Source of the DNA: Halomicrobium mukohataei DSM 12286
GTDB lineage: Archaea > Halobacteriota > Halobacteria > Halobacteriales > Haloarculaceae
NCBI RefSeq assembly: GCF_000023965.1
Contig: NC_013202.1
Location: 2,940,001 to 2,972,000, forward strand
Length of the DNA: 32,000 nucleotides
Direction of reading: 5' to 3'
A program made the translations under genes and the position numbers. Within the stretch, counting starts at the first letter, position 1. Each line of letters begins with the position of its first letter. The notes beneath the pieces were generated by a model that was not told the DNA's origin, ran no database searches, and worked only from the letters and a program-made list of their open reading frames with translations. Below are positions 2,600 to 32,000 of this stretch, piece after piece.

Positions 2600-4294
2600 T
2601 CACACGAGCGAGGTCGCGCCGACGAACGCGGTGAGGTACGTCGCCGTCGCGGCCAGCAGCGCCAGGCCGACGCGATAGCCGACGAGCGACCGGTCGAGCC
2701 CGTCGGTCAGTCCGGTCGCCAGCGTCGTCAGGACGATCGCGAGCACGAGGACGTACCACCCGACTGCGAGGCCGAGATCGGCGGTCGCGACGCTCCCGCC
2801 GAGGGGACCGGCCGATCCCATCGCGGCCGACAGCGCGACCGTCGCACCGCCGACCAGTGGCGCGAACACGGCCGCCGTGTTCGAGAGCGTGTTCGTCACC
2901 TGTGCGACCGCACGGCGGTTCGCCTGCTCGGCCTCGTCGATCGTCTGGAGGTGATCGGCCATCGCCAGCAGGGCGTCCCCGGCGGGTCGCCCCTCCCGAG
3001 CCGAGAGGGCCAGTAGCGAGGCCGCGCTCTCGGCCCGTTCGCTCGGCACCGTCGCCAGCGCGCCGCGTTCACCGACGAACGCCGTCCGGAGGTCGACCCC
3101 GAGGCGACGCTGACGACCGGCCACCTCGGCCAGCACCGTCCCGGTCGCTCCCGGAACCGCCGTAGCGACGTCTTCGACGGCGCGCTCGGTCGCAGTCCCC
3201 CGTGTGACGCGCCGGCCGATCAGCGAGAGCGCGTCGGGGAGACCCGCTTCGACCGCCTCGACGGTCGACCGGACCGACTGCATCGGCTGGAAGGCGACCA
3301 CCAGCGCAGTCCCCAGCCCGGCCCCGGCCGCGGCGACGAATCCCATCCAGTCAGAGAGGACGAGACGGACCGACCAGCCGGCGAGGAGAGCGGCCGCGAT
3401 GCCGGCCACGGCGGCGTGAGTGGGACGAGACCACACGTCCGGATGGGATCGGCGTACCGGCGTCGGGCGGAACGCGACCGGCCGCTTCGTCAGCAGCCAG
3501 GCGCTGGCGAGGGTGACTGCGAGGGGCAAGAGCACGTCGTAGACGACCACGAGCAACGACAGCGGTGCCGGCACGCCGGCCGCGTCCAGGGCGGGCAAGA
3601 GCGCCACGAGTGCGAGGGGCAACAGGACGCCGAAGGCGTACAGCGCGGTCGCCGGCCCGCTGATCGAGGCCGCGAACGCGGCCGTCCGGTCGTGGATGCC
3701 GTCGAGGACCGTCGTCCGAGCGCGTTCGAGCGTCGCCCCGCGCTGCTGGGCCGGTTCCCGCCCGGCGCTCTCGACGAGCGAACACGCGCGTTCCAGTTCG
3801 GGCAACCACGGTCGCCACTCTCGCCCGAACGACTGGAGACCGGTGTTCGGCCCGTTCGCCGTCCGGCGGACGTGACTCGCCAGACTGTCGGCTAACGCTC
3901 CCGGAACGGACCGGGCACCGAACGCCGCGGCGGCCCCCGGTGCCGGCGTCAGGGACAGCCGCATGGTGAGCCGAGTCACGAGCGCCGGTGCGTCACCCAG
4001 CGCCTCCGCTCGCCGGACGCTGGCGAACGCGACGACGAGCTTCGACGTGGCGAGCACGATCGCGGCACAGACGAGACAGCACCCGGCGACGGCCAGCCCG
4101 ACACTGCCGCTCAGGACGGCCTGAACGAAGACGCCAGCCGTAGCCAGCGCGACGGTCGCCGCGTAGCTCGCCCCCACGACCATCTCGGCGTCGACGCCCC
4201 AGCCGAGGAAGGCGACCGCACGACGGAGGTCGGGGTCGGGTGACACGGAGAGAGGCCAGCACCGCGCGACGCCCCGGAGCAGCGCCCGCTTCAT
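2600..4294 (-). CDS. Polytopic platform protein, FlaJ/TadC/PilC-like (type II secretion system F family)
   Basis: The 564-aa product has two repeats of a soluble helical domain followed by hydrophobic segments (e.g. ALYAFGVLLPLALVALLPAL, AVGWYVLVLAIVLTTLATGL). Its ATG at 4294 overlaps the ATPase stop (ATGA, 4291-4294). Confidence 0.8.
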   Translation of the reverse strand: MKRALLRGVARCWPLSVSPDPDLRRAVAFLGWGVDAEMVVGASYAATVALATAGVFVQAVLSGSVGLAVAGCCLVCAAIVLATSKLVVAFASVRRAEALGDAPALVTRLTMRLSLTPAPGAAAAFGARSVPGALADSLASHVRRTANGPNTGLQSFGREWRPWLPELERACSLVESAGREPAQQRGATLERARTTVLDGIHDRTAAFAASISGPATALYAFGVLLPLALVALLPALDAAGVPAPLSLLVVVYDVLLPLAVTLASAWLLTKRPVAFRPTPVRRSHPDVWSRPTHAAVAGIAAALLAGWSVRLVLSDWMGFVAAAGAGLGTALVVAFQPMQSVRSTVEAVEAGLPDALSLIGRRVTRGTATERAVEDVATAVPGATGTVLAEVAGRQRRLGVDLRTAFVGERGALATVPSERAESAASLLALSAREGRPAGDALLAMADHLQTIDEAEQANRRAVAQVTNTLSNTAAVFAPLVGGATVALSAAMGSAGPLGGSVATADLGLAVGWYVLVLAIVLTTLATGLTDGLDRSLVGYRVGLALLAATATYLTAFVGATSLV

Positions 4295-6622: not shown

Positions 6623-7224
6623 AGCCGCGACCGGAGTCGGGCGAGGACACCGCTCTCGTCTGCGCTGTCGCCGCCATCGACGCTGTCAGTGCCGTCGGGC
6701 CCAGCGGCCCCGTCGATCGGGCCGGCACCACGGTGGCCGTCGCCCGTCGCTCCGGAGACGGGCCGGTCGCTCCGGTCACGCCTCGGCGAGTGGGCCGATC
6801 GCTGTGTCCCGCTCGCTGTCCCCGTCGACACCGGTTCTCGGCGGTGGCCGTCCGGAGCGGCGTCGGTGGGATCGGTCGGCCGCGACGCGCTGTCTGATCG
6901 GCGATCGGCCGCGCCGTCGGCGAGTCGCTCTTCGAGTCGATCCACCGCGGCCACCGCGGCGTCGGCCCGTTGCTCGACGTCCTCGTTGACCGACCGGACG
7001 TTGCCCACGTAGCCACGGAGCGCCTGCGTCGCGGCTTCGAGCTCGTCGATCCGTCGCTGGGCACTGTCGAGTTGTTCCTCCAGTTCCTCGACCCGGCGGG
7101 CGAGATCGCCTCGTTGCTGGAGGGCGTCGAGATCGTGATCGTCGCCCGTCAGCGTCCGTTCGACCGCCCGCAGTCGCCGGTCCAGGCGTTCTCGGTCTGG
7201 CATGGCCGTCGGTGGTCCTGTCAT
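6619..7224 (-). CDS. Coiled-coil plus low-complexity protein, first gene of the pilus-like operon
   Basis: Heptad-like segment LDALQQRGDLARRVEELEEQLDSAQRRIDELEAATQALRGYV followed by a Pro/Asp/Gly/Ser/Arg-rich tail. The start is uncertain: ATG at 7224 (used here), ATG at 7203, or the track's TTG at 7251. Confidence 0.65.
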   Translation of the reverse strand: MTGPPTAMPDRERLDRRLRAVERTLTGDDHDLDALQQRGDLARRVEELEEQLDSAQRRIDELEAATQALRGYVGNVRSVNEDVEQRADAAVAAVDRLEERLADGAADRRSDSASRPTDPTDAAPDGHRREPVSTGTASGTQRSAHSPRRDRSDRPVSGATGDGHRGAGPIDGAAGPDGTDSVDGGDSADESGVLARLRSRL

Positions 7225-7283
7225 CGCATTTGAACCCTCGGAACGGGGCAACGTTGATTAGTCGCCCTGTTCAGTCCTACAGT

Positions 7284-8360
7284 ATGAAAGTCGTCCTGAT
7301 TGGTGTCGGTCAAGCCGGGGGGAAGATCACGCAGGCACTCGCAGAGTTCGACTACGACATGGGCTTCGACGCCGTCAAGGGGGCACTGGCGGTCAACACG
7401 GCCCGTCCGGATCTGAGCGAACTCGACATCGACACGCAGCTGATCGGCCAGGACAGGGTCAAGGGCCACGGCGTCGGCGGCGACAACGAACTCGGCGCGG
7501 AGATCATGCAAGAGAGCGCCACCGAGGTGATGGACAACCTCGACGGCCGACTCACCACCGAAGCCGAGGCGATCGTCGTGGTCGCCGGCCTCGGCGGCGG
7601 GACGGGATCTGGCGGCGCACCGATGCTCACGCGTGAACTCCAGCGCATCTACAACATCCCCGTCTACGTCCTCGGCGTCCTCCCCGGCAGAGACGAAGGC
7701 GGACTGTACCAGGCAAACGCCGGCCGCTCGGTCAAGACCTGCGCCCGTGAGGCCGACTCGCTCGTCCTCATCGACAACGACGGCTGGAAGGCTTCCGGAG
7801 ACAGCCTCGAAGCCGGCTTCGAACGCATCAACGACGCCATCGCCCAGCGGATCGGCCTCCTCTTTGCCTCCGGCGAGGCCGTCGAAGGCGTCGGCGAGAG
7901 CGTCGTCGACTCCTCGGAGATCATCAACACGCTCAAGGGTGGCGGCATCGCCTCCGTGGGCTACGCCGCCGCCGAATCGAGCGAAGACCCCGGCGAGAAC
8001 GTCAACACGATCACCAGTGTCACCCGCAACGCGCTCCTGACGAGCATGAGCCTCCCGGACGCGATCGACGCGGAGCGTGGCCTCCTCGTGATCGCCGGCC
8101 ATCCCGAGCGGATCTCGCGAAAGGGCGTCGAACGCGCCCGCAAGTGGATGGAAGAGGAGACCGGCAGCCTCGAAGTTCGTGGCGGCGACTTCCCCATCGA
8201 CAGCGGGAAGCTCGCCTCGCTGGTCGTCCTCGGCGGCGTCGAACGCTCCGAGCGCGTCCAGGAGTTCATGGATCGCGCACGCGAGGCCGAGCAAGAGAAG
8301 AACAAGGAGATCGATCCGATGGAGGGCCTCGAAAACGACGGGCTCGACGATCTGATGTAA
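7284..8360 (+). CDS. cetZ: CetZ-type tubulin/FtsZ-superfamily protein
   Basis: MKVVLIGVGQAGGKI N-terminus, tubulin signature GLGGGTGSGGAP, and an acidic C-terminal tail. ATG at 7284 verified; the track start at 7212 is upstream and non-homologous. Confidence 0.9.
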   Translation: MKVVLIGVGQAGGKITQALAEFDYDMGFDAVKGALAVNTARPDLSELDIDTQLIGQDRVKGHGVGGDNELGAEIMQESATEVMDNLDGRLTTEAEAIVVVAGLGGGTGSGGAPMLTRELQRIYNIPVYVLGVLPGRDEGGLYQANAGRSVKTCAREADSLVLIDNDGWKASGDSLEAGFERINDAIAQRIGLLFASGEAVEGVGESVVDSSEIINTLKGGGIASVGYAAAESSEDPGENVNTITSVTRNALLTSMSLPDAIDAERGLLVIAGHPERISRKGVERARKWMEEETGSLEVRGGDFPIDSGKLASLVVLGGVERSERVQEFMDRAREAEQEKNKEIDPMEGLENDGLDDLM

Positions 8361-8362
8361 GA

Positions 8363-8440
8363 CCATCTTTTTCCCGCTCGGGTTCGAGTCGCGCCTCCGG
8401 CGCGCTCGAACCACTCACGGCAAAAACATGGGTGAAAAAG
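8363..8440. repeat. Palindromic T-run-flanked intergenic element, copy 1
   Basis: Sequence ccatctttttcccgctcgggttcgagtcgcgcctccggcgcgctcgaaccactcacggcaaaaacatgggtgaaaaag. The central hairpin at 8381-8412 has 8+6 bp. It starts 2 nt after the cetZ stop. It aligns by hand with 30016-30081 and 30908-30975. Confidence 0.8.
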
Positions 8441-8647
8441 GCTCGCTCTCACTGCGTTCGAGCGAGTGAACCGGCCGACCTGCCGGGTCCTGACGGACCG
8501 CTCGGTCGCCCGGATGCTTCCGGTGATCAGTACAGGGAATAGGAACAACACATCGGTAAGAAATTGTTGAATTCGCACGCGGATTGAACATCCGGTTCGC
8601 CCGAGAGGCGCTGCGAAGCAATTCACGCAGAGACGGAAACGGGCGTC

Positions 8648-9991
8648 TCAGACCAGACTGGAGCCGTCGAACTCCGTCCTGTCGAAGTCCACGTCCATCA
8701 GGTCCAGAATCGTCGGCGCGATGTCGTAGAGGTCGGCGTCGCTGATCCGGGCGTCCGGGTCGTCGACGAACAGCGTCGCGTTGTCGAAGCTGTGCATGCC
8801 GTTGCGCGGGCCGACGCCGAAGACGTCGTCCGAGCCCTTGAAACCGGCCTTGAGGTCGAAGCCGTGGTTCGGGACGACAGTCAGGTCGGGCGCGATCTCG
8901 TCGTGGTCGCCGCGGTAGGCCTGTTCCTTGGTGACGACGCGGTCCGCGACGGGGTTGCCGTCGGGACCGGTCAGGTTCTCCAGCTTCTCCCGGAGCTCGT
9001 CGCGGACGGCCTCGTACTCGTCTTCGGGCACGGAGCCACGCGGCTCGCGGCCTTCGAGGTTGATGTAGAAGCGACCGGGGATCAGGGAGTACGCCTTCGT
9101 CGACTCGTCGATGTCGCCGAGCGTCTCGTGGTCGTCGTCCTCGTAGGTGAGCCACCCCTCCTCCTGGAGCCACTCGTTGAGGTGGACCTCGTAGTCGAGA
9201 CTGGTGAAGCCGTGGTCGGAGGCGACGACCATCGTGACGTTGTCGGCCAGCAGGTCACGGAGCCGTCCCAGGTAGTCGTCGACCTTGCGGTAGAACTCCA
9301 GGAACTCCTCTTTGTACTCGCCGTCCTCCTCGTAGTGTTTGAACAGGAAGTGGTTCACCCGGTCGGTGGTCATGAAGACGCCGAAAAAGAGGTCCCAGTC
9401 GTCCTGTTCGATGTAGTGTTTGAACGCTTCGAAGCGCCGGTCCAGAGTCTTGTGTGCGTCTTCGATGAACTCCTCTTTGTCCTCGCTGTGGCCGAGCTTG
9501 GCGTTGACGTCGATGCGGTAGTCGTTGTCGTCGAGGTAGTCTCCGAGTTCGTCGGGATAGGCGGCGTCGTCGACGCCCGGCGAGAGGAATCCGGAGACCA
9601 TCCGCTGGACGTTGCGCTGGGGCGGGAACGTGACGGGGACGTTCAGCACCGTCGCGTCGCCGCCGTCGTCTGCGACGCGGTCCCACAGGCGTGTTGCCTG
9701 CACGTCGCGGCCCATCGGAACGTAGGTGTCGTAGGAGCCGATCTCGCGGTCCTGAAAGCCGTAGACGCCGGTCTCTCCGGGGTTGACGCCGGTCGTCAGC
9801 GCCGGCCAGCACGCGCTGGACTCCGGTGGAACGATGCTGTCGATCGGTCCGGCGGTGCCGTCCTCGGCGATCGCCGCGAGGTTCTCGAACTCGTCGTAGT
9901 GGTCCGCGATCAAACTGTGCGGTACCCCGTCGACGCCGAAGAAGGCGACTCGGGGTCCGTCGTCGCCGCGAATACGGTCGAACAGGCCCAT
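8648..9991 (-). CDS. Alkaline-phosphatase-superfamily phosphodiesterase/nucleotide pyrophosphatase-like protein
   Basis: Motifs FFGVDGVPHSL, PPESSACWPALTTG and MVVASDHGF are typical of the type I phosphodiesterase/NPP family. ATG at 9991 verified; the track start at 10018 is TTG. Confidence 0.8.
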   Translation of the reverse strand: MGLFDRIRGDDGPRVAFFGVDGVPHSLIADHYDEFENLAAIAEDGTAGPIDSIVPPESSACWPALTTGVNPGETGVYGFQDREIGSYDTYVPMGRDVQATRLWDRVADDGGDATVLNVPVTFPPQRNVQRMVSGFLSPGVDDAAYPDELGDYLDDNDYRIDVNAKLGHSEDKEEFIEDAHKTLDRRFEAFKHYIEQDDWDLFFGVFMTTDRVNHFLFKHYEEDGEYKEEFLEFYRKVDDYLGRLRDLLADNVTMVVASDHGFTSLDYEVHLNEWLQEEGWLTYEDDDHETLGDIDESTKAYSLIPGRFYINLEGREPRGSVPEDEYEAVRDELREKLENLTGPDGNPVADRVVTKEQAYRGDHDEIAPDLTVVPNHGFDLKAGFKGSDDVFGVGPRNGMHSFDNATLFVDDPDARISDADLYDIAPTILDLMDVDFDRTEFDGSSLV

Positions 9992-10067
9992 GTCACCTCG
10001 TTCATCGTTCGGGGACAAGAAGCTTCTTTTCGCGGCCGAGTCGGGTGTGCGTCACCGGAACCGGCAA

Positions 10068-16236: not shown

Positions 16237-16326
16237 CACAGACGCACAGCCGGTAGCACCAGCGACGGCAGCCGTCACCGCCCCGAAGCCGGGACCGCCG
16301 TCCGGCGCAGGCCGTCTAGACCACGA

Positions 16327-16332
16327 TTTTTA
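16327..16332 (+). promoter_or_regulatory. TATA-like box (ttttta) for the aldo/keto reductase gene
   Basis: Centred ~29 nt upstream of ATG 16359. Confidence 0.45.
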
Positions 16333-21487: not shown

Positions 21488-22378
21488 ATGGTAGATTCGA
21501 TAGATCAATCGAAGAACGTAGAACTCACAGAAGACGATCTCGAAAACAAGTCCAAAGGCGAGCTCATCAAGCTCGCGGGACAGCTTCGAGACCGACGAAA
21601 CGAACTCAACCAGATGGCGTCCGAGCGCGCGTCCGACCGGGACGATCTCAACGCCAAGACGCGTGAGAAGGTCGACGAGGCCCAGGAACACCGCGAGGAG
21701 CGCGACGAGCTCAACGAAAAGGTTCAGGAACACAAAGAGAGCCGCAACGATCTCAACGCCGAGGCCAACGAGCTGTTCGACAAGGTCGAGCAGCTGAAAA
21801 ACGAGATGGAGCTGGACGAGGGCAAGTCCATCGAGGAACTCGAATCCGAGATCGAGGACCTCGAATTCAAACAGCAGACGGAAGTCCTCTCCAGCGAGGA
21901 CGAGCGCGAACTCATCGAGAAGATCGAGGAGAAGCGCGACAAACTCGCCAGCAAGAAAGAGAAGCTCGACCAGACCGAGGACCTCGACGGCCTCAAAGAG
22001 GAGGCCGAGGAGGTCCGCTCGGAGGCCAGCCAGCACCACCAGAAGGTGACCGAGCTCGCCGACGAGGCCCAGAAGCACCACAACGAGATGATCGAGGCCT
22101 ATCGCGAGGCCGACGACATCCGTGACGAGGCCGACGAGATGCATGAGAAGTTCGTGGAGGCCCAGGAAGCGGCCGACCAGCACCACGAGGACTTCGTGCG
22201 CGTCCAGAAGCGCCTGCGCGAACTGGACAAGAAGGAGGAAGCCGAGGAACGCTCGGCTCGCGAGGAAAAGCAGGAGGCCGCCCGCGAGGAGGCCGAAGAG
22301 ATCTACCAGAAGTTCAAGGAAGGCGAGACCCTCGACACCGAGGACCTCATGAAGCTGCAGAAGGCCGGCAAGCTGTAA
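21488..22378 (+). CDS. Long acidic coiled-coil protein (archaeal conserved coiled-coil family, function unknown)
   Basis: 296 aa, almost entirely E/D/K/R/L/Q heptad-like sequence (RDELNEKVQEHKESRNDLNAEANELFDKVEQLKNEMELDEG...). ATG verified. Confidence 0.85.
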   Translation: MVDSIDQSKNVELTEDDLENKSKGELIKLAGQLRDRRNELNQMASERASDRDDLNAKTREKVDEAQEHREERDELNEKVQEHKESRNDLNAEANELFDKVEQLKNEMELDEGKSIEELESEIEDLEFKQQTEVLSSEDERELIEKIEEKRDKLASKKEKLDQTEDLDGLKEEAEEVRSEASQHHQKVTELADEAQKHHNEMIEAYREADDIRDEADEMHEKFVEAQEAADQHHEDFVRVQKRLRELDKKEEAEERSAREEKQEAAREEAEEIYQKFKEGETLDTEDLMKLQKAGKL

Positions 22379-27390: not shown

Positions 27391-29154
27391 ATGCCCGAAG
27401 ACCTCAACTGGGCCATCGGCGGCGAAGCCGGCGATGGAATCGACTCTACCGGGAAGATCTTCGCCCAGGCACTCTCACGGGCAGGTCGACACGTCTTCAC
27501 GTCCAAGGACTTCGCGTCGCGTATCCGCGGTGGGTACACGGCCTACAAGGTCCGGACAGCTGTCGACCGCGTCGAGAGTGTCGTCGACAGACTGGACGTA
27601 CTCATCGCACTGACAGAGCGCACCATCGACGAGAACATGAACGAGCTCCACGATGGCTCGGTCATCATCTACGACGGGGAGCGGACGACGATGCAGAACG
27701 TCGAGATCCCCGACGAGATGATCGGTCTCGAAGTGCCGCTCAAGCGACTCGCCGAAGAGGCCGGCGGCGCGATCATGGCCAACGTCGTCGCCCTCGGTGC
27801 AGCCTGTGAAGTGACCGGCTTCCCCATCGAGAACTTAGACGAGTCCCTGGAGAAGCGCTTCGGCGACAAAGGCGAGGCGATCGTCGAGAACAACAAGAAG
27901 GCGGCCCGCGCCGGCCAGGAGTTCGTCCAGGAGGAGTACGACCACGACTTTGGCTACTCGCTGGAGACGACCGACAACGATTACGTCCTGCTCAACGGTG
28001 ACGAGGCCATCGGCATGGGCGCGATCGCCGCTGGCTGTCGGTTCTACTCCGGCTACCCGATCACGCCCGCGACGGACGTGATGGAGTACATGACCGGCCG
28101 CGTCGACCAGTTCGGTGGCAAGGTCGTCCAGGCCGAGGACGAACTCGCCGCGATCAACATGGCGCTTGGCGCTGCCCGTGCCGGCGCACGAGCGATGACG
28201 GCCACGTCCGGCCCCGGGATCGACCTGATGACCGAGACCTTCGGGCTCGTCGCGACCACCGAGACGCCGCTGGTGATCTGTGACGTGATGCGCTCTGGCC
28301 CCTCCACGGGGATGCCGACCAAGCAGGAACAGGGCGACCTCAACATGGCGCTGTACGGCGGCCACGGCGAGATTCCGCGGTTCGTCGTCACGCCGACGAA
28401 CATCTCGGAGTGCTTCTGGAAGACCGTCGAAGCGTTCAACCTCGCCGAGAAGTACCAGACGCCGGTCTTCCTCGTGTCCGACCTCGCGCTGGCAGTGACC
28501 GAACAGACGTTCGCGCCCGAGACCTTCGACATGGACGAGGTCGAGATCGAGCGCGGCAAGGTCGTCGACGAGGACGATATCGACGGCTGGCAAAACGAGA
28601 AAGACCAGTTCCAGCCACACTTCCCCGCCGCCGACGGCGTCTCGCCCCGTACCTTCCCCGGGACGAGCGGCGGCGCACACATGACGACCGGCCTCGAACA
28701 CGACGCGCTCGGTCGCCGCACCGAAGACACCGAGGTCCGCGAGGAACAGGTCGAGAAGCGCGAACGCAAGGTCGAGACCGCCCGCGAACAGGAAGACTGG
28801 GACTACCGCGAGTTCGGCGATCCCGACGCCGACACGCTGGTCGTCTCGTGGGGCTCGAACGAGGGCGCGATGCGCGAAGGACTGGAGATGCTCGCCGAGG
28901 ACGGCCTCGACGTGCGCTTCGTCTCGGTGCCCTACATCTTCCCGCGGCCCGACCTCAGCGAGGAGATCGAGGCCGCAGAGCAGACGATCGTCGTCGAGTG
29001 TAACGCCACCGGGCAGTTCGCCGACGTGATCGAACACGACGTGCTCGAACGCGTCGACCGCGTCAACAAGTACGACGGCGTCCGCTTCAAGGCCGACGAA
29101 CTGGCCGAAGAGATCAAAGACGCGGTCGCCGAGGAGACAGAGGTGTCAGCATGA
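27391..29154 (+). CDS. korA: 2-oxoacid:ferredoxin oxidoreductase, alpha subunit (size suggests the 2-oxoglutarate enzyme)
   Basis: NWAIGGEAGDGIDSTGKIFA, YPITPATDVMEY, and TATSGPGIDLMTE, typical of the fused alpha/gamma subunit of two-subunit OFORs. The Kor versus Por assignment rests only on subunit lengths (587/287 aa) as I remember them for haloarchaea. Confidence 0.85.
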   Translation: MPEDLNWAIGGEAGDGIDSTGKIFAQALSRAGRHVFTSKDFASRIRGGYTAYKVRTAVDRVESVVDRLDVLIALTERTIDENMNELHDGSVIIYDGERTTMQNVEIPDEMIGLEVPLKRLAEEAGGAIMANVVALGAACEVTGFPIENLDESLEKRFGDKGEAIVENNKKAARAGQEFVQEEYDHDFGYSLETTDNDYVLLNGDEAIGMGAIAAGCRFYSGYPITPATDVMEYMTGRVDQFGGKVVQAEDELAAINMALGAARAGARAMTATSGPGIDLMTETFGLVATTETPLVICDVMRSGPSTGMPTKQEQGDLNMALYGGHGEIPRFVVTPTNISECFWKTVEAFNLAEKYQTPVFLVSDLALAVTEQTFAPETFDMDEVEIERGKVVDEDDIDGWQNEKDQFQPHFPAADGVSPRTFPGTSGGAHMTTGLEHDALGRRTEDTEVREEQVEKRERKVETAREQEDWDYREFGDPDADTLVVSWGSNEGAMREGLEMLAEDGLDVRFVSVPYIFPRPDLSEEIEAAEQTIVVECNATGQFADVIEHDVLERVDRVNKYDGVRFKADELAEEIKDAVAEETEVSA

Positions 29155-30014
29155 GCTCAGACATTCGCTTTACCGACTTCAAGTCCGACAAGCAACCGAC
29201 CTGGTGTCCCGGCTGCGGTGACTTCGGGACCATGAACGGCATGATGAAGGCCCTGGCCGAGACGGGCAACGACCCCGACAACACCTTCGTCGTGGCCGGG
29301 ATCGGCTGTTCGGGCAAGATCGGGACCTACATGCACAGCTACGCGCTCCACGGCGTCCACGGGCGCGCGCTCCCGGTCGGCATCGGCGTCAAGCTCGCCA
29401 ACCCCGACCTCGAAGTGATGGTCGCTGGCGGCGACGGCGACGGCTACTCCATCGGTGCCGGCCACTTCATCCACGCCGTCCGCCGGAACGTCGACATGAC
29501 CTACGTGGTCATGGACAACCGAATCTACGGGCTCACCAAGGGACAGGCCTCGCCGACTTCCCGGGAGGACTTCGAGACCTCGACCTCGCCGGACGGTCCG
29601 AACCAGCCGCCGGTCAACCCCAAGGCCCTCGCGCTGTCGGCCGGCGCGACGTTCATCGCTCAGTCCTTTTCCTCGAACTCCCAGCGCCACGCTCAGCTGG
29701 TCCAGGAGGCGATCGAACACGACGGCTTTGGCTTCGTCAACGTCTACTCCCCGTGCGTGACGTTCAACGACGTGGACACCTACGACTACTTCCGCGACTC
29801 CATCCAGGACCTAGAGGAGACCGACCACGACGAGACCGACGCCGATCAGGCCAAAGACAAGATCCTCGACGGCGACAAGGAGTACATGGGCGTCCTCTAC
29901 CGCGACGACGACTCCGTGCCCTTCGACGAGCGTGAAGGGTTCGACCAGAATATGGCCGAGATCCCGGACGGCGCACCCGACGGTGCGATGGATCTCGTCC
30001 GAGAGTTCTACTAG
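29151..30014 (+). CDS. korB: 2-oxoacid:ferredoxin oxidoreductase, beta (TPP-binding) subunit
   Basis: WCPGCGDFG, and TPP motif GGDGDGYSIG...VMDNRIYGLTKGQ. ATGA overlap with the alpha subunit (29151-29154). Confidence 0.88.
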   Translation: MSSDIRFTDFKSDKQPTWCPGCGDFGTMNGMMKALAETGNDPDNTFVVAGIGCSGKIGTYMHSYALHGVHGRALPVGIGVKLANPDLEVMVAGGDGDGYSIGAGHFIHAVRRNVDMTYVVMDNRIYGLTKGQASPTSREDFETSTSPDGPNQPPVNPKALALSAGATFIAQSFSSNSQRHAQLVQEAIEHDGFGFVNVYSPCVTFNDVDTYDYFRDSIQDLEETDHDETDADQAKDKILDGDKEYMGVLYRDDDSVPFDEREGFDQNMAEIPDGAPDGAMDLVREFY

Positions 30015-30015
30015 A

Positions 30016-30081
30016 CCACCTTTTTCCGCTTCGGGTTCGCGCGGAGCGCGAACCGCTCGCGCAAAAACGTGGGCGAAAAAG
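30016..30081. repeat. Palindromic T-run-flanked intergenic element, copy 2
   Basis: ccacctttttccgcttcgggttcgcgcggagcgcgaaccgctcgcgcaaaaacgtgggcgaaaaag. The central hairpin at 30034-30054 is a perfect 9 bp. It starts 1 nt after the korB stop. Confidence 0.8.
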
Positions 30082-30082
30082 A

Positions 30083-30256
30083 CCGCGAGTCGTGCCTGAC
30101 TCACGGCTTCGCCGTTCGTCTTTCGAGATTCCGAAGGAATCTCGCCACCGGCGCGCTCGCGGTGTTGTGCGTGAACACCGCGAACGCACTGCTCGTCAGA
30201 GCTTGCTCTGACGGTGAATCGCGCGAACGACCGGGTTCTTCGAGCCGTTCGTTCGC
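30083..30256. other. Array of five consecutive hairpins in a non-coding region
   Basis: Hand-verified stems: 30083-30106 (8 of 9 bp), 30124-30144 (9 bp, loop gaa), 30158-30182 (9 bp), 30194-30213 (8 bp, loop cttg), 30223-30256 (8 bp, 18-nt loop). There is no credible ORF on either strand. Confidence 0.6.
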
Positions 30257-30483
30257 ACGAGTGCTACAGTTCTCCAACCGGCTACGATGATCTCGATCAG
30301 TACGATCAACACGAGCAGTTACCGGCTGTTGATTCTTGTCGCCGTTTGCCCGGGCCACGGCGTCCGACTGAACGCTGTGAGAACCGGCTCTGGAGACGAG
30401 GGCCGGAGTCTCCCGGTGACGTACGGTCGGTCCGGTAACGATCGACAGTCCTCCGTCTGAAATCCACGAACGAAAGTTAACAC

Positions 30484-30489: not shown

Positions 30490-30515
30490 CCGACAACCGC
30501 GTGTTCCGACGGTGT

Positions 30516-30833
30516 ATGCGATTCTGTGACGAGTGTAGTTCGATGATGCACACGGAGGGCGACACGTGGGTGTGTCGCTCCTGTGAGAACGAGGAATCAC
30601 GGGACTCGCACGCCGAAGCGGCGATGACGACCCAGGACGGACAGCGGGACGACGGGGCACCCGCCGTCGCCGACGCGACCCAAGACGCCACCGAGACGAT
30701 GCACGAGTCCTGTCCGGCCGAAGGCTGTGACAGCGACCGGGCCGGCTACGAGATGCTGCCCAAGCCGGGCGGCTCCTACGAGGTTCGACTGTTCACCTGC
30801 GTCGAGTGTGGCCACAAGTGGCGCGAGTCCTGA
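30516..30833 (+). CDS. Transcription factor S / RNAP subunit M-family double zinc-ribbon protein (divergent paralogue)
   Basis: N-terminal ribbon MRFCDECSSMM...WVCRSC, and C-terminal ribbon CPAEGCDSDRAGYEML.......RLFTCVECGHKWRE (TFIIS-type). ATG at 30516 verified; the track start at 30501 is GTG. Confidence 0.8.
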   Translation: MRFCDECSSMMHTEGDTWVCRSCENEESRDSHAEAAMTTQDGQRDDGAPAVADATQDATETMHESCPAEGCDSDRAGYEMLPKPGGSYEVRLFTCVECGHKWRES

Positions 30834-30843
30834 CGGCGCAACG

Positions 30844-30899
30844 CCCGTCGAATCAGGGTTTGCCCGGCAGTACTTCGGGCTCTCCAGACCGATGGATAT
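30844..30899. repeat. 56-bp direct repeat, copy A (orphan duplicate of the 3' end of the 31008.. gene)
   Basis: Hand alignment with 30999-31054 gives 53 of 56 identical. On the minus strand it reads ..IHRSGEPEVLPGKP* but has no ORF upstream of it. Confidence 0.8.
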
Positions 30900-30907
30900 C
30901 CTGGCAA

Positions 30908-30975
30908 CCACCTTTTTCCCGCTCGGGTTCGCGCTTCGCGCGAACCGCTCTCGGCAAAAACGTGGGCGAAAGAAG
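30908..30975. repeat. Palindromic T-run-flanked intergenic element, copy 3
   Basis: ccacctttttcccgctcgggttcgcgcttcgcgcgaaccgctctcggcaaaaacgtgggcgaaagaag. The central hairpin at 30926-30946 is a perfect 9 bp. It sits between the two 56-bp direct repeats. Confidence 0.8.
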
Positions 30976-31002
30976 CGGGATTCGCACACAGCGCGAATCC
31001 CG
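30976..31002. other. Perfect 10-bp hairpin adjoining element copy 3
   Basis: cgggattcgc-acacagc-gcgaatcccg. The 3' arm overlaps the first bases of direct-repeat copy B. Confidence 0.5.
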
Positions 31003-31054
31003 TCGAATCAGGGTTTGCCCGGCAGTACTTCGGGTTCTCCAGACCGATAGATGT
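30999..31054. repeat. 56-bp direct repeat, copy B (functional 3' end of the minus-strand gene)
   Basis: Contains the stop (tca, 31008-31010) and the codons for ..EYIYRSGEPEVLPGKP*. Confidence 0.8.
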
Positions 31055-32000
31055 ACTCCACGGCCACGCCGGTCAGCGGCGAGTCGACGGCGGTCGCGTA
31101 CTCCTTGGCCAGATCGAGGTACTGTTCGGTGATGTCGACGACGCGGCGGTAGGCGGCCTCGTCGTCGGGGGCCAGCAGGTACTCGGCGGTGACTGGGGTT
31201 AACTGTCCCTCGCGGCGGTCGTCGGCGTAGTCGTCCACGTCGTCGAGCCAGATCTGTGCGCCGACGATCGCGAGCACGATGGCGCGGGCGAACTCGTCTT
31301 CGATGTCGAGGCCGGCGAGTCGGTACAGGTCGAGCATGCCGTCGTACAGCACGCCGACCCGAGCGTACTGCGTCTTCATGTACGGTAGCGCTCGTTCGGT
31401 CTCGGAGAACAGTTCGGCGACGTCGTCGTCGGTGAACGCGGCGAACTTGTACTCGTCGCGAACGTCTGCGAGTGCCGTGTCGTCGCCGTCTTCGGCGGCG
31501 TCCACGAGGTCCCGAAAGTGGGCGTCCCGGTCCTGGTGGGCCTCACTGTAGTCGACGGCCCACTGGTAGCGCCGGGCGACGATCGGCGGCAGCCCGTCGA
31601 GGATCTCTTCGAGGTGGTCCTGGAGCGCGCGCTGTGCGACCTCGGCGACGCGGCGCATCTCGTCGGGCTCGAAGTCGACGGCGAAGTCCTCGAACTCGGC
31701 GTCGTTGATCGCGTCGCGCATGTCGCCGTCGATCAGCGCCTCGATGGAGAGGCGGGTCATCTGCTCGGCCCGAACGACCATCTCTCGGGGCGACAGCTCC
31801 TGACCGGGGCCGGCCTGGAGCGCCGTCTCGTCGACGCCGGGAACGCCGCTTTCGATCTCGTCGGTCACGGGGTCCTCGCCGGCCCGCTGGCGCGCGCGGC
31901 GGTAGACGTAGCCAAGCGTCAGCTGTGCGGGCAACACGAGCTTCGTGTCGTACTCGAAGCTGACGCTGTCGCGGTCGAACGCCTCCGCGAGAGCGTCCTC
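31008..32000 (-). CDS. Acidic, helix-rich hypothetical protein (5' end probably beyond the right window edge)
   Basis: The track ORF starts at GTG 31937, but I read the same frame open with G/C-rich third positions up to 32000 (..EDALAEAFDRDSVSFEYDTKLV-LPAQ..). It contains an Asp-rich IWLDDVDDYADD stretch. No family is assigned with confidence. Confidence 0.7.
   Translation of the reverse strand, partial: EDALAEAFDRDSVSFEYDTKLVLPAQLTLGYVYRRARQRAGEDPVTDEIESGVPGVDETALQAGPGQELSPREMVVRAEQMTRLSIEALIDGDMRDAINDAEFEDFAVDFEPDEMRRVAEVAQRALQDHLEEILDGLPPIVARRYQWAVDYSEAHQDRDAHFRDLVDAAEDGDDTALADVRDEYKFAAFTDDDVAELFSETERALPYMKTQYARVGVLYDGMLDLYRLAGLDIEDEFARAIVLAIVGAQIWLDDVDDYADDRREGQLTPVTAEYLLAPDDEAAYRRVVDITEQYLDLAKEYATAVDSPLTGVAVEYIYRSGEPEVLPGKP

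Follow-up and report, generated by a model that had tools for sequence, protein, structure and literature searches.

What are the palindromes that recur behind genes in the genome of Halomicrobium mukohataei DSM 12286? The question arises from a stretch of 32,000 nucleotides (NC_013202.1, positions 2,940,001 to 2,972,000 of the forward strand; hereafter, the window), in which an earlier note, made from the letters alone, had described three copies of a palindromic element with runs of five T (T5) on both strands. It had offered three explanations: a portable bidirectional terminator, a mobile palindrome of the repetitive extragenic palindrome (REP) or miniature inverted-repeat transposable element (MITE) kind, or a small structured RNA. 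The window copies prove to be members of a class-wide haloarchaeal family of three-hairpin modules on gene 3' flanks that is, as far as could be found, apparently undescribed, and of the three options the terminator-associated one gains the most support. From sequence comparison, and with moderate confidence, we read the module as a vertically conserved, occasionally copied, bidirectional terminator/insulator on the gene 3' flank.

All three copies lie on the + strand, starting at 8363, 30016 and 30908, where the earlier note had placed them. A left-arm consensus allowing up to three mismatches is matched three times in the window (by copy 3 with no mismatch), and not once in 100 dinucleotide-preserving shuffles. 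A covariance model of the first hairpin (H1), built from 71 related sequences, finds exactly the same three copies at 80–87 bits (80.3, 83 and 86.7 for copies 1, 2 and 3), while the reverse strand scores only 19–32 bits and the window gives no other credible match. The copies extend from 8363 to about 8517, from 30016 to about 30264, and from 30908 to 31003; the size of 66–78 nt given earlier suits H1 but not the whole element, since H2, and in copies 1 and 2 also H3, had been missed. The gene-proximal T5 is found at 8368–8372, 30021–30025 and 30913–30917 (copies 1, 2 and 3), and pairs with a run of five A (A5) at 8422–8426, 30063–30067 and 30956–30960. A second A5 is present at 8435–8439 in copy 1 and 30076–30080 in copy 2 and is degenerate in copy 3 (GAAAGAAG). 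The window has a G+C content of 66.7%, and 8 of its 21 runs of at least five A or T fall inside the three copies. The gaps to the upstream genes were also correctly given, copy 1 starting 2 nt past the TAA of cetZ and copy 2 starting 1 nt past the TAG of korB (stop codon 30012–30014); from the stop codon of the preceding gene to the start of T5 the distance is 8 nt in copy 1, 7 nt in copy 2 and 80 nt in copy 3.

Comparison of many copies reveals a common layout. On the + strand, H1 consists of a 4-bp outer stem, C-T5-CC, a 3–4-bp stem, a TC/NCTC internal loop, a GGGTTCG/CGAACC stem with a variable tip, G-C-A5-C and the closing half of the outer stem. Its halves are inverted copies of each other, and the apical stems of the window copies differ yet remain paired, which bears out the description of an inverted repeat with a varying tip. 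H1 is 57–69 nt long, with a variable outer stem (CCAC, CCAT, CGAA, CGAC, GAAC) and a variable sequence to its left (TAAGA, TAGA, GCAA, ATACAGA and others). It is followed by an unpaired linker, G(C/T)GAAAAAGG, whose GAAAAAG stretch is nearly invariant among copies, then by a second hairpin (H2) of variable sequence, a (T/G/A)GAACC linker, a third hairpin (H3) and GGATGC. All 35 distinct H2 sequences fold into a single hairpin, as do 26 of the 28 distinct H3 sequences, and in copy 1 the three-hairpin layout is the minimum-free-energy structure (-75.3 kcal/mol, z = -4.7). When the layout is written as a strict expression, 37 of 69 non-redundant copies match it, most of the others being variants with extra small hairpins inserted.

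Further copies in relatives, compensatory changes in the stem and a position close to stop codons, all of which the earlier note had named as things to look for, were found. An exact-pattern scan of species-representative genomes returned 76 loci in dozens of genera, nearly all of them Halobacteria, and these span at least four families (Haloarculaceae, Natrialbaceae, Haloferacaceae and Halobacteriaceae, as well as Halococcus). Copy number is low, with about 3–5 exact matches per complete genome. The exact pattern has no match in viral contigs, and single copies of the module are scattered over haloarchaeal plasmids, in intergenic DNA that has no annotation. No part of the window matches an Rfam family at gathering scores, and a permissive search gave only matches with E values of 0.17 or higher, far below those scores; a literature search that included sequence strings found no description of the module. 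Individual loci are labelled L0xx below. One of them, L024 (CAYREV010000109.1), holds a typical copy and a second, partial copy in a metagenome-assembled genome labelled as an uncultured member of the Balneolaceae (bacterial), and is probably a haloarchaeal contig in the wrong bin.

Pairing within H1 is under strong constraint. In an alignment of 71 pattern-selected sequences, 96.7% of the cells in the 22-pair H1 structure are standard pairs and 167 cells are changed on both sides, compared with 62 in shuffles, while slid controls fall to about 45% paired. Since the search pattern had shaped this set, the test was repeated on korB-site sequences chosen by synteny alone. Among 80 metagenome korB loci (452 kb) the element lies exactly at the korB stop codon in 25, and there is just one weak match elsewhere in this DNA. 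The 19 distinct korB-site sequences, fitted to the covariance model, have 94.4% of cells paired and 13 of 22 pairs changed on both sides, with a covariation score of 0.415, against 0.10 for shuffles and at most 0.06 for slid controls. At the cetZ site, the orthologous locus L041 (CetZ 90.6% identical) retains the whole module with unchanged linkers and at least five compensatory double substitutions across H1 and H2; alignability with the window stops just past GGATGCT, and the DNA to the right of GGATGC is not conserved. Modules at the EF-2, TatC, tRNA-Phe and tRNA-Gly sites are likewise common to different species or genera. Conservation with compensatory changes at these orthologous sites argues, at the level of sequence, that such copies are old, vertically inherited and under purifying selection as a structure.

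The positions of the copies point to gene ends. Of 92 copies, 35 start no more than 8 nt from the end of a same-strand gene or tRNA gene, which places their T5 5–13 nt past that end, and of these, four follow tRNA genes, whereas 31 follow an open reading frame (ORF) that lies on the same strand and has high third-position G+C, with a start between -1 and 8 nt past its stop codon. The other (H2/H3) side abuts a gene tail in just 8 or so copies, as judged by manual inspection. The abutted genes are core or housekeeping genes, including those for EF-2, ProRS, SdhA, glutamate synthase, TatC, TFS, KorB and CetZ. Over all fetched DNA, four of 13 tRNA genes have a same-strand copy starting within 3 nt of their 3' end; this adjacency indicates a constraint on transcript ends rather than on translation, and it puts T5 where archaeal oligo-T terminators sit. 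Decayed orthologues tell which part is kept: L077 (KorB 99% identical) has lost about 300 nt and kept ACCCTCTTTTTGCTCG, L020 has lost the A5 run and kept T5, and in these two loci T5 is the most strongly retained part of the module. Where korB has no module, ordinary T4–T6 C(C/T) tracts occur 15–35 nt downstream, and these match the T-stretch termination motif of Haloferax volcanii (PMC7237163). On the opposite strand, the first T5 that would be met by a transcript of the phosphodiesterase gene convergent with cetZ falls within copy 1. In Halarchaeum, two full elements are arranged tail to tail between convergent genes (L019, 3681–3996; L027, 5992–6304), each abutting the stop codon of its own gene, so that both genes are provided with a gene-proximal T5.

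T-stretches are the sites at which archaeal RNA polymerase terminates, and archaeal termination is usually pictured as a bare T-stretch acting with or without the factor aCPSF1/FttA. The module would add to this picture as follows. The gene-proximal T5 would serve the protein or tRNA gene upstream as its oligo-T terminator. The - strand reads H3', GGTTCA, H2', CCTTTTTC, 6 nt and GTTTTTG, and so contains two T5 runs, the first of which comes right after H2' in a hairpin-plus-T5 layout like that of an intrinsic terminator. Transcription arriving on the opposite strand would meet H3', H2' and CCTTTTTC, and then, with 8 nt between the two T5 runs, GTTTTTG as a back-up, and would stop before reaching the gene. 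The near-invariance of the unpaired A-run is most simply explained as a T-run on the other strand. In a genome of 67% G+C, where T-runs are scarce, the module would thereby be a compact device for termination and insulation in both directions. The hairpins, which are under selection, would probably provide fail-safe, hairpin-assisted stop signals for read-through and probably also protect the 3' ends of read-through or convergent transcripts, and the conserved internal loop may be bound by a putative factor. In Haloferax volcanii (PMC7237163), T-stretches mark transcript ends, 503 of the mapped ends have a hairpin upstream, and a single hairpin by itself brought about 59% termination when tested with a reporter. 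Modules would mostly be inherited vertically with each gene end, be lost by deletion and now and then be copied, either as the MITE-like derivatives with terminal inverted repeats seen in Natrialbaceae or by tandem amplification together with the neighbouring gene tail. The terminator part of the original proposal is thus supported by the 35 of 92 copies at gene ends, the survival of T5 and the hairpin-plus-T5 of the - strand.

Several points weigh against this reading. Termination is inferred from position only, and the gene calls are heuristic. The T-run precedes the H1 hairpin in both directions, which the earlier note had missed, and is paired with the A-run as part of the stem, so that H1 cannot promote release in the bacterial manner at that T-run; a bacterial hairpin-then-U mechanism for H1 is excluded by this reversed polarity. 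A T5 alone would suffice for termination, and the TC/NCTC loop, the GGGT/ACC flanks, the GAACC/GGATGC linkers and H3 are then left over; our confidence is kept at a middling level because termination by itself does not explain the loop, these linkers or H3. A convergent gene lies within 400 nt of only about a quarter of copies, so the opposite-strand T-runs are not obviously needed at most sites, and copy number is low, most genes managing without a module. Both alignments carry a bias: some 'invariant' positions among the 71 sequences were imposed by the search pattern, and the korB-site alignment leans towards structure through its fit to the covariance model. Wobble pairs are rare, and the counts of G-U versus A-C on the + strand are contradictory, 14 to 2 at the korB site and 3 to 11 in the 71-sequence set. 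The counts thus give no consistent strand bias of the kind that would point to selection at the RNA level on one strand.

It is possible, if unlikely, that the module works as a structured RNA beyond stopping polymerase, either as a 3' untranslated region (3'-UTR) platform on read-through mRNA, serving stability, processing or protein binding, or as an independent - strand small RNA of about 85–100 nt that would run GCAUCC-H3'-GGUUCA-H2'-CCUUUUU and end at the H2'-U5 terminator. Conservation extends over the whole 155 nt, with compensatory changes in H1, H2 and H3, fixed single-stranded linkers and a sharp right-hand boundary at GGATGC, and the - strand H2' followed by U5 resembles the 3' end of a small RNA gene. 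The - strand also folds more stably, both for H1 (-34.3 versus -27.3 kcal/mol, the - strand being more stable in every one of 78 copies) and for copy 1 in its full length (-88.4 kcal/mol, z = -6.1, versus the -75.3 kcal/mol of the + strand), and each of the three hairpins shares this preference. The difference arises because, where the + strand has pyrimidine internal loops and TTC triloops, the - strand has tandem G.A pairs and GAA loops, GCGAAGC among them. Since the bias largely reflects purine-rich loops, folding energy was set aside as a guide to the functional strand, and so were the G-U and A-C counts, in which the G-U excess at the korB site, a point in favour of a structured RNA, is reversed in the larger set. 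A + strand RNA must, moreover, first read through the T5 right behind the gene; no conserved promoter was identified on either strand, orthologues share no conserved sequence to the right of GGATGC, and Rfam gave no family at either gathering or permissive thresholds. A further proposal, which we regard as distinctly improbable, makes the module a platform for a putative sequence-specific factor that would read the invariant internal loop and the GAACC/GGATGC linkers, on a nucleic-acid hairpin or on cruciform DNA, and enforce termination or form a roadblock at a selection of tRNA genes and of genes with high expression; the TC/NCTC loop of the + strand reads as tandem G.A on the - strand.

We also doubt a reading in which mobility comes first and the module is a non-autonomous element of the REP/REPIN, palindrome-associated transposable element (PATE) or MITE kind, whose imperfect hairpins would be recognised in single-stranded DNA by a transposase encoded elsewhere (for example, HUH/Y1) and whose place at gene ends would express target preference and tolerance of insertion, not function. 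In Natrialbaceae the module forms the core of a unit of about 225 nt with terminal inverted repeats of 15–16 nt (CGTGCTGAATACAGAG), and near-identical copies occur within species (five in Halobiforma, five in Natronosalvus, three in Natronococcus), so that this form, to judge from its sequence, behaves in a MITE-like way. When the surroundings of all copies were searched for terminal repeats and target-site duplications, only a few Natrialbaceae copies had them; no inverted repeats of 9 nt or more and no target-site duplications surround the window copies or other copies outside that family. The REP/MITE-like option and the word 'portable' therefore fit the Natrialbaceae form but not the window copies, which are without terminal repeats and lie at sites conserved by descent, and an abundance of about 3–5 per genome is not REP-like. 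The ORFs beside the MITE-like Natrialbaceae copy L063 include no transposase, and a tblastn search of about 1.06 Mb of loci gave no match to an IS200/IS608 TnpA query, a weak test. Duplication is better attested. On either side of copy 3 lies a direct repeat of 70 nt (89% identity, with a spacing of 155 nt), the left copy of which (30833–30902) comprises a pseudo-copy of half of H2 and the last 50 nt or so of the - strand gene, and the right copy (30988–31057) the 3' half of H2 and the real 3' end of the ORF at 31008–31937 (-). This arrangement, junction included, recurs in the related metagenome contig L078, and in its close relative L079 the two convergent stop codons are just 9 nt apart. 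Comparison of L078, L079 and the window led us to reject a long target-site duplication, the junction being common to lineages; the simplest history suggested by the sequences is an old partial tandem duplication of module and gene tail, followed in L079 by a later deletion between the repeats. Salinibaculum litoreum (CP046866; L060, 1–1493 and L031, 7691–8000) has at least ten head-to-tail, 100% identical units of 171 nt, each made up of H1-H2 and the last 80 nt or so of the adjacent - strand gene, in an array that starts mid-H2 like the copy 3 duplication. Palindrome-associated duplication and deletion do occur, and clean transposition is shown nowhere outside Natrialbaceae. Besides the Natrialbaceae copies, the tandem units and the partial duplications, mobility would account for nested small hairpins flanked by GTGG repeats, for single copies scattered on plasmids, for the near absence of wobble pairs in the 71-sequence set, for conserved unpaired positions such as a protein-recognised hairpin would have, and for the - strand GCGAAGC-type mini-hairpins and tandem G.A, H1 being 7 kcal/mol more stable there in all 78 copies; korB-site H1 similarity that does not track KorB identity also suggests replacement or gene conversion between copies. 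Against this stand the few exact matches per complete genome, the single weak match off the korB site in 452 kb of korB loci, and the lack of copies in viral contigs; persistence at orthologous sites across genera, with compensatory changes and a sharp boundary, points to host-level selection, and the 'filled versus empty' cases (L077, and L079 versus L078) are best read as deletions, not insertions. That the resemblance is due to chance or is a local gene-conversion artefact without wider meaning is hardly credible: three of the genome's few copies do fall in one 32-kb window, two of them 0.9 kb apart, but the absence of shuffle matches, the 76 loci in dozens of genera and the covariation at orthologous sites refute it.

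Set beside known systems, the module is functionally closest to an archaeal oligo-T terminator combined with a composite palindrome like those of REPs and bacterial interspersed mosaic elements (BIMEs), and it lacks defining features of each known family. Compact palindromic units with T-runs for both strands lie between convergent genes in bacterial bidirectional intrinsic terminators as well, and on the - strand H2' and the ensuing CCUUUUUC stand in the canonical hairpin-then-U order; in H1, however, the T-tract is 5' and the A-tract 3', mutually paired at the stem base, and hairpin-then-U is found in one direction only, where H2' on the - strand is followed by T5. REPs, BIMEs and REPINs of Proteobacteria regulate from the 3' UTR, terminate transcription and stabilise mRNA, and they owe their mobility to RAYT, a Y1 HUH transposase. 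They resemble the module in being imperfect palindromes outside genes, placed at gene 3' ends or between genes that converge, in forming composite multi-hairpin units, in their long vertical inheritance and in the parts proposed for them in termination and the stability of mRNA. Unlike them, the module has no GTAG or CGTC head, an H1 of 57–69 nt in place of a palindrome of 20–40 nt, a few copies per genome and not hundreds (about 100 or more being expected of REPs), and an archaeal host. The weak TnpA query gave no sign of a RAYT in the 1.06 Mb of loci. Archaeal oligo-T terminators (PMC7237163) have at least four to five T on the non-template strand shortly past the gene 3' end; the module has about five there, tRNA genes included, and its left arm CTTTTTCC resembles the TTTTC(C/T) tracts of the element-less korB loci, but ordinary terminators of this type are not embedded in a conserved three-hairpin palindromic module of about 155 nt and have no opposite-strand T-runs. 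Haloarchaeal MITEs and PATEs, such as those of Haloquadratum walsbyi (PMC3119063), are also small, non-coding, hairpin-rich intergenic repeats, and the Natrialbaceae form shares their terminal inverted repeats and multiple near-identical copies; the window copies have neither such repeats nor target-site duplications, no parent insertion sequence was identified, and the module is kept at orthologous gene ends across genera with compensatory changes. Comparison with IS200/IS605-derived PATEs, which have subterminal hairpins at both ends, insert 3' of a fixed tetra- or pentanucleotide and are without terminal repeats or duplications, gives a mixed picture: the module has hairpins and no such repeats or duplications, and its left flank varies. 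Bacterial hairpin-cluster terminators (PMC8355165) likewise place adjacent GC-rich hairpins directly past the stop codon, but they are a generic, hairpin-dependent structural class and not a conserved sequence family.

Other identities were considered and dropped. The ends of the module misfit the R''(RYYYAAC)/R'(GTTRRRY) cores of integron attC sites, and the genes next to it, which encode housekeeping proteins and tRNAs, are syntenic. None of the copies contains a tRNA-like gene according to ARAGORN, and the GGGTTCGAGTC of copy 1 was rejected as a T-arm since its 3' partner is missing. The - strand loops are tandem G.A/A.G, but by inspection the 3-nt bulge that defines a K-turn/L7Ae site is absent. 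Features of a C/D-box small RNA, a Shine-Dalgarno-like GGTGA in the linkers and a TFB recognition element (BRE)/TATA promoter in the A-run linker were, by eye, not conserved across subfamilies.

The individual copies in the window can be laid out on the + strand as follows. Copy 1 lies, as the earlier note had recognised, between convergent genes, which encode CetZ (+, 7212–8360) and a phosphodiesterase-family protein (-, 8648–10018; both Pfam). Its H1 (8363–8431) has, in the minimum-free-energy fold, a CCAT/ATGG outer stem, T5/A5, a TC/ACTC loop, the GGGTTCG/CGAACC stem and an extended apical stem. The unpaired linker GTGAAAAAGG (8432–8441), which the - strand reads as CCTTTTTCAC directly after H2, is followed by H2 (8441–8467), with compensatory changes relative to L041, the conserved linker TGAACC (8467–8472), and H3 with the right boundary GGATGC (8471–8517, GGATGC at 8512–8517), orthologue similarity ending just past GGATGCT. 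Copy 2 is found downstream of the genes for the alpha and beta (korB) subunits of a 2-oxoacid:ferredoxin oxidoreductase (27391–30014; Pfam), the KorB sequence being 100% identical to Halomicrobium proteins. Its H1 (30016–30072) is followed by linker GCGAAAAAG and H2 (30073–30106, H2 at 30083–30106), by extra inserted hairpins (30107–30213), including CGTCAGAGCTTGCTCTGACG (30194–30213), which recurs in copies of other genomes, and by linker GGTGAATC, H3 and GAGTGC, the counterpart of GGATGC (30213–30264), a part common to L078 and L080. Copy 3, also between convergent genes as noted before, is flanked by a TFS-like zinc-ribbon gene (+, 30501–30833; Pfam) and the ORF at 31008–31937 (-). It consists of H1 (30908–30965) and a degenerate linker GCGAAAGAAG with H2 (30966–31003, H2 at 30976–31003), has no H3, and ends 4 nt from the stop codon of the - strand gene (31008–31010).

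Some further repeats accompany the family. A small hairpin type, (C)GTCAGAGCTTGCTCTGAC(G), occurs in or next to elements of different genera (window 30194–30213, L028, L032, L037 and L067) and possibly represents a second mini-repeat of a nested kind; duplicated GTGG motifs enclose the inserted hairpins of L032 and L067. In four Natrialbaceae loci (L053, L055, L058 and L063) the left-end motif GCTGAATACAGGGCGCGAA appears again 60–100 nt to the right of the MITE-like copies, followed by a different sequence (TGTGGCAC), which suggests another repeat family with the same terminus. Within the window, TAGACCACGATTTTT at 16317–16331 is like the left end of an element (stop codon, ACCAC, T5) with no palindrome after it; this may be coincidence, or a terminator of similar type standing alone. 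The ORF at 21488–22378 (+) has several internal direct repeats of 40–58 nt (60–75% identity, in three repeat families), and its predicted product looks like a repetitive, acidic, possibly coiled-coil protein. ARAGORN also flagged a 'tRNA-???' with a four-base anticodon at 2789–2863 (-), within the long ORF 2600–4294, which is probably a false positive.

The family presents a T5 built into a conserved, covarying three-hairpin module behind genes for tRNAs, EF-2, KorB and CetZ across several haloarchaeal families. If the module is a two-way terminator/insulator, it would show how genomes that are high in G+C and poor in T-runs build strong, compact stop signals, and haloarchaeal genetics would gain a portable terminator part that is ready for use. 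An element that is bound by a protein or acts at the RNA level would instead give Archaea a new counterpart to the bacterial REP/BIME 3'-UTR regulators. Should the module turn out to be a platform for a specific factor, it would represent a dedicated, factor-dependent archaeal terminator/insulator system, and the first REP/BIME-like domesticated family to be described in the domain.

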